The notes under the pieces: generated by a model
The model's input: the letters and a program-made list of their open reading frames with translations, nothing else
Database searches by the model: none
Told to the model about the DNA's origin: nothing
IMG/VR virus record: IMGVR_UViG_3300046167_000924
Coordinates: 32,001 to 96,000 of that record
Direction: 5' to 3' (one strand)
DNA from: a virus
Length of the DNA stretch: 64,000 nt
Shown here: piece after piece, positions 3,247 to 56,993 of the stretch
How positions within the stretch are numbered: the stretch's first letter is position 1
Layout: each line of letters begins with the position of its first letter
Position numbers and translations under genes: made by a program

Positions 3247-5718
3247 ATGAAGATGACGCCAAAGCCTAATTTTACGCCGCGCGCACAGCAGGCAATCAAT
3301 GAAGCGAAAAAAGTTGCCGAGAAATATAAAAATAACGATGTATCAATAGAGCATTTATTTTATGGAATGCTCAAGTTGACAGCAGGAATATTAAGTGAAA
3401 TACTTTTTTTATTAAATATTAACCAAAGATTATTACTTGAAGAAGTAGAAAATTCTTTCGTAGACTCACTCGCTAATGAAGATTATGATCTTGATACAGA
3501 ATATGAAGAGCCCAGTTATGACGAACATTTTCACCTAATCCTTAAAGTTGCAGCCTCAATCAGCTCTAAGCTTGGTCATGAATATGTTGGACTAGAACAT
3601 ATGCTTTTAGCTTTATTGAAATATGAAGAATCGAGTGTGCCTCAATTTTTTGTTCCTTTCAATGCCTCTGAAGAAGATATTATCATAGAAGTAAGAGAAT
3701 ACCTGCATCTTTCAAAAGAAAATCACACAAGCAGTAGGACTCAGAAAAGCAACCCCACCCCGCCCAAACCTATAGTTAAAGACCTTGCGACCCCAACGCT
3801 TGAAAAGCATGCCTTAAATTTAAACATGCAAGCGATAAAAGGTAAATTTGATGGGATCATAGGAAAACAGCAAGAAATTATGGAAGCTTGTGAAATTTTA
3901 TGCCGAAAAACAAAAAATAATCCAGTTTTACTTGGAGAGCCTGGCGTAGGAAAAACGGCCATAGTTGAAGGTTTAGCTCAAAAAATAGTAAAAGCAGAAG
4001 CCCCAGATTTCCTACTAGGCAAGATTATATATGCCCTAGACCTAGGATCACTCATAGCTGGAACAAAATATAGAGGACAATTCGAGGAACGACTCAAGAA
4101 AATTATCGACGAAGCAAAGAAAAACCCAGAAATAATACTATTCATTGACGAAATTCACACCCTAGTAGGCGCAGGTAGCGCAGAAGGAAGCATGGACGCA
4201 GCGAATCTATTAAAACCCTTACTTGCAAGAGGAGAACTTAAATGTATTGGCGCAACAACAGTTGATGAATACAAAAAAAGTATATTAAAAGACGGAGCTT
4301 TAGATCGAAGATTTCAAGCAGTAAAAGTTATCGAGCCAACAAAGTCAGAAACTAGACAAATTTTACAAGGAATAAAAAATAAATACGAATCATTTCATAG
4401 TATTCATTATACAGATGAAATTTTAGATTTGATTGTTCATTTGACTTCTAAATACATTCTTGATAAACAGTTTCCAGATAAAGCGATTGATGTTATGGAT
4501 CAAGCTGGTTCAAAAGTTAAAATTAAAAATATAGAAAGACCACAAGAAGCAAAAGACATAGAAAAGCATTTAGAAAATCTAGCACTAAAAGAGTCTGATC
4601 TAAGCATAGTAGGAATGGATACATATGCAGTAACAGAAGAACAATTAAATTTATTAGAAGAATATGATACTATAATAGATAATTGGTTAACTAAAACATT
4701 AAAATCAAAAATAAAAGTTACTAAAAAAGATATTTTTGAAGTTGTGTCCTCGAGAACAGGAATACCGGTTTCTCAAGTTTCTAAAAAAGATTCAACAAGG
4801 ATGCTTGGATTGTTCAAAAAGCTAGACAAGAAAATTGTTGGCCAAACAGAAGCCTTACAAGAAATTTCTCAATCAATTTTAAGATCTAAATCTGGATTGC
4901 AGGATGCAGGTAAGCCAGTCGGAAGCTTTTTATTGGTTGGAGCTAGCGGAACAGGAAAAACTTATACAGCAAAATGTATTGCTGAATTTATATATGGAGG
5001 TATAGACAAATTAATACAGCTTGATATGAGTGAATTTTCCGAGAAGATTTCGTCTAGTCGACTAATTGGCGCATCCCCAGGGTATGTGGGATACGAAGAA
5101 GGTGGAGATCTAACTGAAAGAGTAAGAAGGAATCCTTACAGTGTTATACTATTTGATGAAATTGAGAAGGCTCACCCAGAGGTCCTAAACATATTGTTGC
5201 AAATTCTTGAAGAGGGTTTTGTTACAGACAACTCAGGAAGAAAGATTAATTTTAATAATTGTATAATTATCCTAACAGGTAATATTGGTAGTGAAAAAAT
5301 ATCCAAACCAACTATTGGATTCGGAGGAGATGGAGAAACTGCCGCAAAAGACAAAATCAAAAACGAACTAAAAGGGTTCTTTAGGCCAGAATTTCTAAAT
5401 AGGCTTAACGAAATTATTGTTTTTAAAGATTTCCAAGAAGATGAGTTGGCGGAAATAGCAAAACTTGAGATGCAAAAATTGATCAACAAATTAAAAGACA
5501 TGGATTTAAAAATGTCAGCAACTCCAAAAGTATCAAAGTATATAGCTTCCCTTGCGACATCAGAAAAAATGGGCGCGAGACCAATTAAAAGATTAATTCA
5601 AAAACACTTAGAAAATCCGCTATCTGAACTTATTTTAAATAAATCGCTAACAGAAGAATCGGAAATTAAATTCTCTATCGTAAAGGAAGAGGTAAAATAT
5701 ACTATTAAGGAAGTATAG
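3247..5718 (+). CDS. clpC: ClpA/ClpC-family AAA+ ATPase (alternative start 3253)
   Basis: Clp_N repeats, Walker A GEPGVGKT and GASGTGKT, Walker B FIDEIH and LFDEIEK, FRPEFLNR, IGF loop. Confidence 0.9.
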   Translation: MKMTPKPNFTPRAQQAINEAKKVAEKYKNNDVSIEHLFYGMLKLTAGILSEILFLLNINQRLLLEEVENSFVDSLANEDYDLDTEYEEPSYDEHFHLILKVAASISSKLGHEYVGLEHMLLALLKYEESSVPQFFVPFNASEEDIIIEVREYLHLSKENHTSSRTQKSNPTPPKPIVKDLATPTLEKHALNLNMQAIKGKFDGIIGKQQEIMEACEILCRKTKNNPVLLGEPGVGKTAIVEGLAQKIVKAEAPDFLLGKIIYALDLGSLIAGTKYRGQFEERLKKIIDEAKKNPEIILFIDEIHTLVGAGSAEGSMDAANLLKPLLARGELKCIGATTVDEYKKSILKDGALDRRFQAVKVIEPTKSETRQILQGIKNKYESFHSIHYTDEILDLIVHLTSKYILDKQFPDKAIDVMDQAGSKVKIKNIERPQEAKDIEKHLENLALKESDLSIVGMDTYAVTEEQLNLLEEYDTIIDNWLTKTLKSKIKVTKKDIFEVVSSRTGIPVSQVSKKDSTRMLGLFKKLDKKIVGQTEALQEISQSILRSKSGLQDAGKPVGSFLLVGASGTGKTYTAKCIAEFIYGGIDKLIQLDMSEFSEKISSSRLIGASPGYVGYEEGGDLTERVRRNPYSVILFDEIEKAHPEVLNILLQILEEGFVTDNSGRKINFNNCIIILTGNIGSEKISKPTIGFGGDGETAAKDKIKNELKGFFRPEFLNRLNEIIVFKDFQEDELAEIAKLEMQKLINKLKDMDLKMSATPKVSKYIASLATSEKMGARPIKRLIQKHLENPLSELILNKSLTEESEIKFSIVKEEVKYTIKEV

Positions 5719-34838: not shown

Positions 34839-34922
34839 TTAATAGTCTTCGTTTTTGTGTTCGATTACTGCGCGGATGAGGCCTAGGATTACTGAGACGA
34901 CAATAATTAAAGTCGGATCCAC
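34839..34922 (-). CDS. 27-aa hydrophobic peptide
   Basis: GTG overlapping TAG; MDPTLIIVVSVILGLIRAVIEHKNEDY. Confidence 0.45.
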   Translation of the reverse strand: MDPTLIIVVSVILGLIRAVIEHKNEDY

Positions 34923-35497
34923 TATGCTGTGCCAGAATACTTCTTCCAGATTTCCAAATCAAGATCAGTCACTGACTTACCTAGTTGTCGAGCAATACTC
35001 TTAAAGATGTTCGCGAAATAATAGTATGTATTCTCATTAGTTGGCGTGCTCTTTGGGGCGTCGCCATATCCTTGGTCGCGAAGGAACCTTAAGATATGTG
35101 TGTCGAGCATTGGTTCGTCAAAGTCTTCGCGACTATGAGAAAGAAAGAATCTTGCTGTTTTGAGCCCGATGCCAGCAACCTGTAGTAAACGGTTAAGAGT
35201 AACGGTTTGAAGGTCTTGAATCTTTGATACAGCAACATAAGAGTTATATCTTTGCTTGTATGGACTAAGCTTTGCCCAATGCATGATCTCTTGCAGCCGG
35301 CCCAATTTAATCAATTTTCTTATACAATTAAGTGGAGTAGTTTCTTTTGTTATATCTTTTGCTCTTTCAATAAACACTTCTAATTTAGGTGCTTCAATTG
35401 AGCTTTTCTTTCCTGCTACATTAATACAAAATAAGATAAATTCTTCTAATTCGTATTGTGTTCTATTATAGTTTGTTACTTCTGCTGGATTAATCAT
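34922..35497 (-). CDS. HhH-GPD DNA glycosylase, Ogg2-like
   Basis: GIGLKTARFFL, LDTHILRFL, LDLEIW. Confidence 0.75.
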   Translation of the reverse strand: MINPAEVTNYNRTQYELEEFILFCINVAGKKSSIEAPKLEVFIERAKDITKETTPLNCIRKLIKLGRLQEIMHWAKLSPYKQRYNSYVAVSKIQDLQTVTLNRLLQVAGIGLKTARFFLSHSREDFDEPMLDTHILRFLRDQGYGDAPKSTPTNENTYYYFANIFKSIARQLGKSVTDLDLEIWKKYSGTA

Positions 35498-35515: not shown

Positions 35516-35770
35516 TTATTGTGCAATGTGGAGTGTTGTGCGAAGATTGTCGCATTCTTTACTCGAGAAAAATACTTCTCTGCAATAGTCGACATCTCTT
35601 TCTTCTACATCTTCGATGCGTTGAATTGCACGCCAAACAGGCATGCGTTCTCTTTGCATTCCGCCCCATTTGATTACTACTCTCATGTGTGGAAAGTGTT
35701 CGTTGAGTTCGGCGAGTTGTGGTTTGGTTATATATCCGTAGTTCGCGAGAATGTTTTTTAATGTGTTCAT
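35516..35770 (-). CDS. Hypothetical protein
   Basis: TTGACA-16-CATACT-7-ATG. Confidence 0.7.
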   Translation of the reverse strand: MNTLKNILANYGYITKPQLAELNEHFPHMRVVIKWGGMQRERMPVWRAIQRIEDVEERDVDYCREVFFSSKECDNLRTTLHIAQ

Positions 35771-35807
35771 GAGTACTAGTATGACAGATTTCGAATCATT
35801 GTCAAAC

Positions 35808-35842
35808 AAAAAAACCTACCCAAGGAATAAACCTTGAGTAGG
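35808..35842 (-). terminator. Intrinsic terminator
   Basis: 11-bp stem CCTACTCAAGG/CCTTGGGTAGG plus T run. Confidence 0.85.
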
Positions 35843-35844
35843 CT

Positions 35845-36203
35845 AGAATGCATGATTAAGAAAATGGTGTGGGGAAGGACTACTGTATACCTCCAATTTT
35901 TCGGCGTGAACATCAGTTCATTGTGTACCTACTTCAAACTACAGACTAGACATGGTATTGTCATTTGGCTCATTCGATTGAACTCTACCAACCCTACCAC
36001 AGGGATCTGCATACTTTAGCCCGCTCACGACAGGCTTATTCGGTCACCCACAGGATGTCTCCGTCGAGAACATCCAAAGTTAAAACAAATTGAAATGAGA
36101 ATGTAAACTCTGATCTACAGAATGACTTATTAAACTCCAACTTGTTTTTAAAATGTAAAAGATCAATTATTTTATTTGATTGAGTTTATTTCTCAATTGT
36201 TAT
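35845..36203 (-). ncRNA. Candidate large structured ncRNA
   Basis: TTGACT-17-TATAAT promoter (36238/36215), no sense ORF, several hairpins, terminator. Confidence 0.55.
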
Positions 36204-36246
36204 ACGAGTATTATACTATATATTTGATTAAAAGTCAAGCACTTTT

Positions 36247-37925: not shown

Positions 37926-38002
37926 TGGCGGGATAGACGAGACTCGAACTCGCGACCTTCTGCGTGACAGGCAGACACTCTAACCAACTGAGCTACTACC
38001 CC
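37926..38002 (-). tRNA. tRNA-Asp (GTC)
   Basis: Cloverleaf, CT-GTC-AC loop, encoded CCA. Confidence 0.93.
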
Positions 38003-38034
38003 GATTATTTGATAAAAATATTTGTATAATTAAG

Positions 38035-38127
38035 TGGCGGAGAAAGAGGGATTCGAACCCTCGGAAGAGCGTTAAACCCTTCAGCAGTTTAGCAAACTAC
38101 CGCATTCGACCACTCTGCCATTTCTCC
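38035..38127 (-). tRNA. tRNA-Ser (GCT)
   Basis: Long variable arm, TT-GCT-AA loop, encoded CCA. Confidence 0.93.
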
Positions 38128-55870: not shown

Positions 55871-56521
55871 TTATTTATTTGATTGTTTATAAATACTATA
55901 TTTGTGCGTTTTTGAAAATGCGTTTTTAAAGTATGTAAAAAACTCTGCTTCTCTAGCGTGAATATTATAACCATCGTTATCGAATATTCTGTACAATGAT
56001 GTTTTAAATCTCATTGGTAGATAAAAATTTTCTTTTATACATTTCTTGATGAATACAACTGCATGATCTAATACCTTTCGGGATATTTTATTTGATTTAA
56101 ATTTGTTTTTAATAAAAACTAAATATTCTTTTGCTTCTTTAAATGCTTGTTCTTTTTGGTATTCTTCGTATGTAGGTTCTCTTCCTGCGATGTCTCTCCC
56201 AACATCTTCTTCTGTTGTGAGTTTTTTAGCAGTTTTTTTTTCGCTTATTTTATTTCGGCATTCTATATTTGATTTATACATTTCTGCTTGCCGTTTCATT
56301 TCGTCTTTTTCTTTTTCTTTTAAAGTGTTGATCGCAGTAGATTCGTTCATCTTGCCATGAATAACCTTTCTAACATTCATGTCAATAGATCGACAAGTTA
56401 ATCTATAAGGAAAATTCTTGCAAAGAAAGCGATAGAATTGACCACTTATTTTGCCGTGTTTTAATTGTTTATGCAAGAATCTTCTGTAGTTGCAATTTTT
56501 TGTATTGTGCAATGTTTTCAT
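55871..56521 (-). CDS. Basic hypothetical protein
   Basis: 216-aa ORF. Confidence 0.65.
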   Translation of the reverse strand: MKTLHNTKNCNYRRFLHKQLKHGKISGQFYRFLCKNFPYRLTCRSIDMNVRKVIHGKMNESTAINTLKEKEKDEMKRQAEMYKSNIECRNKISEKKTAKKLTTEEDVGRDIAGREPTYEEYQKEQAFKEAKEYLVFIKNKFKSNKISRKVLDHAVVFIKKCIKENFYLPMRFKTSLYRIFDNDGYNIHAREAEFFTYFKNAFSKTHKYSIYKQSNK

Positions 56522-56581
56522 ATGTACATATTTTAGCTTTTTATCGACATATATTTAAAATGTGTCGATTTTATAAGCATA

Positions 56582-56812
56582 TTATTTTTGTTTATTTGTT
56601 TTTTTATCTCCCCAAAAGCCACAAACACATGGCTTATTATTTTTTTGATTCGCTCCTTCTTGGAAGCCTTTTTCATATGATTGGTTTGCGTTTTTACTTA
56701 ATATTTTTTCAAATTTTCTCGATAAGATTTCTTGTGCATCTGCGAAGCCTTTGTTGTACCCACGCTCGTAGTATATGTTTTCTGCCATGTGTTCTATCAT
56801 GTCGTTGTTCAT
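56582..56812 (-). CDS. Hypothetical protein
   Basis: ORF track. Confidence 0.55.
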   Translation of the reverse strand: MNNDMIEHMAENIYYERGYNKGFADAQEILSRKFEKILSKNANQSYEKGFQEGANQKNNKPCVCGFWGDKKTNKQK

Positions 56813-56993
56813 ATTATCTCATATTTTTGTGTGTTTGTCAATCTTTTTTTTATTTATTGTTGTTTTCCAAACCTTGTGATTTGTATCTAGCTTCATGCTC
56901 CAATACATTATTTTGCTATAGACAGGGTACAGAAAGGCGAATAAATCACAATACAATAAAAAACTTAATGCATGACCGCAATAATACAAAAAA

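Follow-up and report, generated by a model that had tools for sequence, protein, structure and literature searches.

A probable free-standing manA RNA gene with a guide-like leader hairpin and a conserved 3′ tail in large marine phages

The manA RNA motif (RF01745) was described by Weinberg et al. in 2010 as a riboswitch candidate found in marine metagenomes, T4-like cyanophages, and two gamma-proteobacteria (PMC2864571), and its alignment was updated in Rfam 14 (PMC7779021). Rfam gives the family the type "Cis-reg", and the literature likewise classes manA as cis-regulatory. RNA-only assemblies of manA have been reported from cryo-EM by Ren et al. (bioRxiv 10.64898/2026.07.01.735769): decamers, octamers, and a 60-mer cage, built from pentamers and joined in vitro through kissing loops. 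In that preprint manA still figures as a putative element of 5′ UTRs. A second described system resembles a smaller part of the locus studied here. In the TIGR-Tas systems described by Faure et al. (2025, PMC12045711), the stem-loop TIGR arrays and tigRNAs have an internal loop that separates a palindromic basal stem from a linker stem-loop, and each side of this loop holds one short variable segment with conserved 2–3-nt motifs at its flanks.

An Rfam 15 scan of the window (the whole 64,000-nt stretch of viral DNA that was analysed) returned manA as the sole non-tRNA match, at 36075..35864 on the minus strand. The match scores 89.4 bits against a gathering score of 55.2, has an E of 1.6e-23 in a local covariance-model search, and covers model positions 1–192, the full model without truncation. 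The first-pass annotation could not assign the RNA to a family and had allowed that a known Rfam hit would remove the novelty; the Rfam scan that it had proposed has now done so for the core. The RNA is real, its family is already catalogued, and, judged from the covariance-model match, the core almost certainly belongs to manA. Each hairpin that had been picked out by eye corresponds to one manA consensus helix (GGATGT/ACATCC, GCCTG/CGGGC, CCCT/AGGG, GACA/TGTC, and TGAAC/GTTCA), as does the long-range helix GTGGG/CCCAC (GUGGG/CCCAC in the RNA). The window copy also carries the conserved loop and junction words of the model, namely GUGAC-GAAUAA, GUGGU, ACCA, CUG, GGUAUACAGUA, and UAUACAGUA. 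Two model helices pair poorly in this copy, and two peripheral helices are altered relative to the consensus. The transcription unit and its surroundings comprise the following features, all on the minus strand.

36210..36238, minus: sigma70-type promoter TTGACT-17-TATAAT, near-consensus (11/12)
36179..36197, minus: small leader hairpin UUGAG...CUCAA, kept by almost every relative of the subtype
36154..36165, minus: boxA-like 12-nt word TGATCTTTTACA, following the small hairpin
36082..36148, minus: 67-nt dual-arm hairpin, guide-like, of the stem-loop TIGR type but off-rule (see below), with a 15-bp basal stem and a 6-bp apical stem
36133..36124 and 36106..36097, minus: the two 10-nt arms of this hairpin, UUA-AUAAG-UC and UUA-CAUUC-UC
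35864..36075, minus: manA RNA core, divergent subtype, 212 nt, identified by covariance-model match and covariation
35845..35863, minus: single-stranded tail between core and terminator, UUUUCUUAAUCAUGCAUUCUAG, unpaired save for a weak, non-significant pairing with the leader
35806..35844, minus: intrinsic terminator found by terminator scan, hairpin (35844..35813) plus T run, at the same position in relatives but with other stem sequences
35778..35805, minus: promoter of the next gene, TTGACA-16-CATACT with TG, 7 nt from its -10 box to the ATG
35516..35770, minus: conserved 84-aa ORF, apparently with a leaderless message and outside the RNA gene, from the ORF list and relatives

Most of what had been read from the letters alone was borne out. 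The promoter lies at 36238..36210 on the minus strand and matches the consensus at 11 of 12 positions in a promoter scan, and transcription probably starts near 36203. The terminator hairpin at 35844..35813 has the proposed 11-bp core (CCUACUCAAGG/CCUUGGGUAGG), with 13 pairs counted in all and a T run. The unit, put at about 390 nt, comes to ~396 nt with its own promoter and intrinsic terminator, and its longest sense-strand ORF between the two is 45 aa, none being credible. The supposed GC-richer core has a GC fraction of 0.41–0.49, compared with 0.19–0.23 in the leader. The folding energy of the 396-nt unit gives a z of -3.7 against dinucleotide shuffles.

We collected relatives by pattern scans of IMG/VR. 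A two-block manA pattern gave 30 loci, 28 of which score 160–187 bits and two 77–81 bits. A window-specific pattern, CTGTGGGTGACNGAATAA, gave about 20 further loci at 66–93 bits, mostly on contigs of 33–214 kb. These loci define a divergent subtype, present in about 20 large marine phage contigs, that keeps the helices and the loop and junction words of RF01745 but scores about half as high as the canonical cyanophage copies (76–93 against 160–187 bits). The phages also differ, the canonical copies being of cyanophage type and the subtype residing in large marine phages that are not cyanophage-like. The subtype shares a conserved insert, AAGUAGGUAC, and the loop words GUGGU, ACCA, CUG, and UAUACAGUA are largely kept across its alignment. 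In a scan of the genome collection the two-block pattern found nothing, and in a second such scan for manA 26 of 27 matches were chance; blastn with the 1.2-kb region found no match among 50,697 phage records.

The homolog and covariation check that had been suggested was performed on 17 subtype sequences. RNAalifold independently recovered most manA helices, among them the long-range helix that closes the core, the junction helix, and six hairpins (the first, GAAUAA, GUGGU, variable, CUG, and UAUACAGUA hairpins). Among the 51 predicted pairs, 23 have changed on both sides in a compensatory manner. The near-identical IMG/VR fragment G001 contributes no covariation.

Among the genes of the window phage are those for RIIA/RIIB, a DNA polymerase, a ligase, a Lon-like protease, and tRNAs; the ligase shares no more than 42% identity with its counterpart in any catalogued phage. 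The contigs binned into a Cellvibrionales metagenome-assembled genome include a phage-like one of 210,818 nt (L215; G003:C4, JAYQMT010000004.1) whose manA gene has this architecture too; its presence there is a weak hint of a marine gamma-proteobacterial host or else a binning artefact. Several other RNAs accompany manA in these phages. A tRNA-Asp and a tRNA-Ser gene lie at 37926-38127 (minus) in the window, 1.8 kb upstream of manA on the same strand, and L059 likewise has a tRNA-Asp/tRNA-Ser pair ~2 kb upstream. Matches to tmRNA (RF00023) occur on contigs with divergent manA (L014:10941-11374, 102.6 bits; L041:7424-7507, 62.7 bits), and a glutamine-II riboswitch (L019:996-1053) lies on the same strand ~630 nt downstream of a canonical cyanophage-type manA copy. 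The window also contains eight head-to-tail repeats at 126-nt spacing at about 55940–56830 (plus-strand coordinates), each with AGGCTAGAAACATCAACATCTA on the plus strand; they fall partly within a 216-aa ORF (55871..56521), in which the period would equal 42 aa.

The leader of the RNA begins with the small hairpin, a region that overlaps a weaker promoter-like match, TTGAGA-16-TAAAAT. The 12-nt word that follows is conserved in position and reads TGATCTTTAACA in most relatives and TGATCTTTTACA in the window. With the E. coli rrn boxA, TGCTCTTTAACA, it shares 10 of 12 positions in the window and 11 of 12 in relatives. BoxA is a word of rRNA-operon and CRISPR-array leaders that acts in NusB/S10 antitermination. 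As in such leaders, the word here follows a small hairpin near the start of an untranslated transcript with extensive structure. Unlike in such leaders, it also serves as the linker between guide units in one relative (L081), so it may instead be a processing or recombination site.

A hairpin of 64–68 nt is inserted right after the boxA-like word in the window, G001, L040/L042, L055, L084, and L089, whereas in eight relatives without it manA follows within about 10–20 nt of the word. It is absent from the close relatives L044/L059/L062 and L060, and in two pairs of near-identical leaders (window and L044/L059; L040 and L060) the hairpin unit is the only difference. The unit combines a basal stem of 14–15 bp and an apical stem of 6 bp with two 10-nt arms that follow the pattern U(U/C)A-N5-UC. 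Across seven unit variants the N5 pentamers differ pairwise at 73–74% of positions (0.73–0.74), which is essentially random, compared with 0–23% for the scaffold. From promoter to terminator the window and G001 (L001) differ by a single base, and this base (window 36127) lies inside the 5′ pentamer (AUAAG vs AUACG).

Six units from relatives end both pentamers on 2 nt that are Watson-Crick complementary to each other, for which the chance expectation is (1/16)^6. The two pentamers of such a unit thus define a single 8-bp word that can be read on both strands of DNA. The window hairpin shares with stem-loop TIGR units the guide architecture of two variable spacers, each with short conserved flanks, placed around a linker: its variable segments likewise face each other across an internal loop, with a palindromic basal stem below and a linker stem-loop above, and are flanked by conserved 2–3-nt motifs. 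It differs in that its variable parts are only 5 nt long, compared with the 8–12-nt spacers of stem-loop TIGR (PMC12045711), and in that it is a single unit inside the leader of another RNA gene rather than part of an array. Unlike its relatives, moreover, the window copy breaks the 2-nt overlap rule (AUAAG/CAUUC, and AUACG/CAUUC in G001), so that its two spacers do not specify one DNA site on opposite strands, and its apical loop has 5 nt where relatives have 6. Candidate words read from the window hairpin in shifted register show no depletion in the window, where avoidance of its own word was not seen. The window unit is probably a decayed copy.

Searches for partners and further copies of this hairpin were negative within their scope. 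No match was found to Pfam Nop in G001 and G002 or to IS110 DEDD in G001–G003, all three of which are fragments or bins, and three syntenic relatives of the right end of the window contain no dual-arm hairpins. An IMG/VR scan for the linker word plus ATAAG gave chance matches only, and one for the hairpin stems gave the three lineages already found plus chance matches in coding DNA.

Related hairpin arrangements occur in other phages. L081, which is syntenic with the window, has a two-unit guide-hairpin mini-array (L081:1-1104, minus as oriented) with its own promoter, TTGACA-17-TATATT. This mini-array lies between an 83-aa ORF and the manA promoter, just upstream of the latter, with the boxA-like word as linker, and the manA leader of L081 carries a different hairpin insert of ~95 nt (UUUUAGCUCA...UGAGCUAAAA). 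L045 has two leader hairpins (5132-5360, minus; apical loop UUAAAU) and L052 has one (890-1030), with unrelated stems and a similar dual-arm design; their arms depart from the 2-nt overlap rule when read in the same register.

At the other end of the RNA, the tail decamer UCUUAAUCAU (35861..35852) is the exact complement of ATGATTAAGA. This word occurs exactly eight times in the window: one copy is the tail complement, and the other seven open promoter-proximal early ORFs (24167, 25218, 25475, 27307, 27560, 31174, and 34545). These seven ORFs are otherwise unrelated and start 6–7 nt after a -10 box, and by this spacing their messages look leaderless. The predicted tail–tag duplexes are short and AU-rich, with 10–14 bp and energies of -10.6 to -14.3 kcal/mol. 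Within the tail, at least five lineages keep the block AUUUCUUAAUCAU unchanged, while its flanks and the terminators differ. All eight loci with this tail have the tag at leaderless-type starts, compared with none of ten loci with other tails, an association that is confined to one clade and hence confounded by relatedness. The 210-kb relative (G003:C4), which has a different tail, contains the tag only twice, and a covariation test of the tail saw no enrichment in it.

Trans-acting bacterial and phage small RNAs with a single-stranded seed offer a parallel. They likewise have a conserved, unpaired block of 10–13 nt just before the terminator hairpin with its U tail, and this block is likewise complementary to the start region of several messages. 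In contrast to these RNAs, the body here is an ornate, possibly multimeric fold of 212 nt, and pairing would be aimed at the very first bases of leaderless messages. Antisense action of the tail is tentatively proposed on the basis of complementarity and conservation, and we regard it as somewhat less probable than its absence.

A different explanation would keep the free-standing manA RNA but deny its additions any function in trans. The tail would be a spacer or a partner of the leader in closing or processing, the tag match a by-product of the AU-rich early region, and the hairpin a dead passenger. The minimum-energy fold does pair leader AUUGAGAAA weakly with tail UUUCUUAAU, a pairing that could mask the tail or supply its real partner, and a short GAGAA(A)/UUUCU(C) pairing between leader and tail is possible in several lineages. 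These leader–tail closing helices are, however, weak and no better than shuffles (fraction at least as good 0.03–0.63). The hairpin itself fits such an account, with its shortened apical loop, its departure from the overlap rule obeyed by six other units, and no demonstrable avoided word. So do the out-group tails, which lack a repeated partner: relatives with other tails showed no repeated complementary start tag in the sequences examined, and an IMG/VR scan for the tag predicted from L045/L053, which was too unspecific, showed no matching repeated tag among the matches listed. Against this account, the tag complement is exact over 10 nt, for which we estimate from base composition a chance of ~1e-4 in a tail of ~20 nt, and the tail block is invariant between variable flanks. 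We consider an RNA without trans function unlikely, though the main alternative to a trans-acting one.

A cis-regulatory leader or riboswitch, in which the folded domain would sense a signal and use the terminator as expression platform to control the 84-aa ORF, would agree with the proposal of Weinberg et al. (PMC2864571), with the conserved order of domain, terminator, and ORF, and with the placement of canonical manA copies directly upstream of ORFs. Among the 30 canonical cyanophage-type loci, several of them near-duplicates, an ORF starts 18–54 nt downstream in 25 and a terminator is found in none. The divergent subtype is arranged differently, since its copies are flanked by their own promoter and terminator and not placed in a 5′ UTR. 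In 17 of the 22 subtype loci manA is preceded by a promoter of the same type (TTGACA/T-17-TATAAT), 69–223 nt away, with L014 as an outlier at 39 nt. A hairpin with a T run follows manA by 11–25 nt in 17/22 loci and lies further downstream in two more; in the window it begins 21 nt after the motif. The terminator does not overlap the folded domain, as would be needed for riboswitch-type competition with the core: the 3′ strand of the core is invariant, and the terminator stems are unrelated between phages (eight distinct stems in the clade of the window, plus that of L011). Such variation of the stem sequence with retention of the hairpin fits a real terminator selected for structure alone. Because these stems lie outside the core and differ freely, there is no room for a conserved antiterminator pairing.

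The next gene is independent as well. Its promoter, TTGACA-16/17-CATACT, and the distance of 6–7 nt from -10 box to ATG are kept in at least ten distinct loci, and the 84-aa ORF has before it no Shine-Dalgarno sequence or other ribosome-binding site that could serve read-through. The position of this promoter, the short distance to the ATG, and the lack of a ribosome-binding site indicate a leaderless message that does not depend on the manA transcript. Terminator and separate promoter thus intervene where a cis-regulatory element would share one transcript with its ORF; in L056, which lacks the terminator, the ORF promoter follows manA directly. These observations leave cis-regulation improbable, and manA here is very probably a stand-alone gene. 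The 84-aa ORF has no PHROG or Pfam match. Two genes downstream of manA, a 191-aa ORF (34922-35497, minus) strongly matches PHROG 11575; its match to the Ogg-HhH domain of 8-oxoguanine glycosylase, at 26 bits, stays below the cut-off of 27.

The first-pass annotation had described a functional phage RNA with an acceptor-like end that may be processed. The RNA is indeed structured, independently transcribed, and functional-looking; the acceptor-like end is unsupported. A CCA follows the closing helix at 35865, and the same strand carries tRNA genes 1.8 kb upstream, as might be expected of a tRNA-like or CCA-ended processed RNA. The CCA, however, is missing in about half of the relatives, among all of which the bases after the closing helix read CCAT, CCTA, CCAA, CTAA, TCTA, TCAA, or CAAT, and the RNA runs on past this site for ~20 nt into the conserved tail and then the terminator. 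Given also that neither ARAGORN nor the Rfam tRNA model finds anything at the manA unit, we reject this highly improbable reading. A protein-coding origin, from the 45-aa sense ORF (35913..35776) or from a plus-strand ORF that opens with the shared start tag ATGATTAAGA at 35852, is least credible of all, as the compensatory base-pair changes indicate selection on RNA structure, the full-length covariance-model match covers the region, and the plus strand has no promoter at the right distance.

We return to a free-standing manA RNA gene that would act in trans, is likely multimeric, and has a tail that possibly damps tagged early messages, a reading to which we assign a probability of roughly 60%. 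Host RNA polymerase would start at the strong sigma70 promoter, read the AU-rich leader with its small hairpin and boxA-like word, then the 67-nt guide-like hairpin and the 212-nt manA core, and stop at the intrinsic terminator. The RNA would then form a multimeric particle through loop–loop contacts. The assemblies of Ren et al. belong to the same family, and the window copy has the complementary loops GUGGUA/UACCAU (GUGGU/ACCA) and ACUG/CAGU; retention of these loop pairs in a family that assembles in vitro leads us to expect a particle here too. Those assemblies were made in vitro from other manA variants, and our mapping of the loop numbers of the preprint onto the window is inferential. 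By this analogy, self-assembly in vivo could equally well occur or not. Within the proposed mechanism, the tail UCUUAAUCAU would pair with the first 10 nt (AUGAUUAAGA) of the seven leaderless early messages, cover the start codon, and so damp early-gene translation. The leader hairpin would be a passenger guide unit of a TIGR-like system of the phage, probably decayed here.

A bolder version, which we consider speculative and rather unlikely, would make the locus a composite RNA operon. The boxA-led, free-standing manA transcript would offer its leader as a landing pad for TIGR-type guide hairpins that are gained and lost, and a manA ring or cage would display many antisense tails that trap AUGAUUAAGA-tagged leaderless 5′ ends, resulting in a multivalent shut-off of early genes.

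The family to which this RNA belongs is known; what would make the variant new, as far as can be read from the genomes compared, are the divergent subtype, the gene-like context, the landing site for guide hairpins, and the antisense tail. If neither the tail nor the guide link holds, the locus is one more copy of a known family. Since 2010 manA has been an orphan "riboswitch candidate", and a clade in which it is a gene of its own, with a promoter, an antitermination-like leader, a terminator, and a separately promoted next gene, argues for a trans-acting manA, at least here. The clade also provides two handles on function, namely a conserved antisense tail aimed at a shared tag and a physical link to TIGR-like guide-hairpin units. 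Were the composite-operon reading true, both manA and an RNA cage would for the first time have a biological role.
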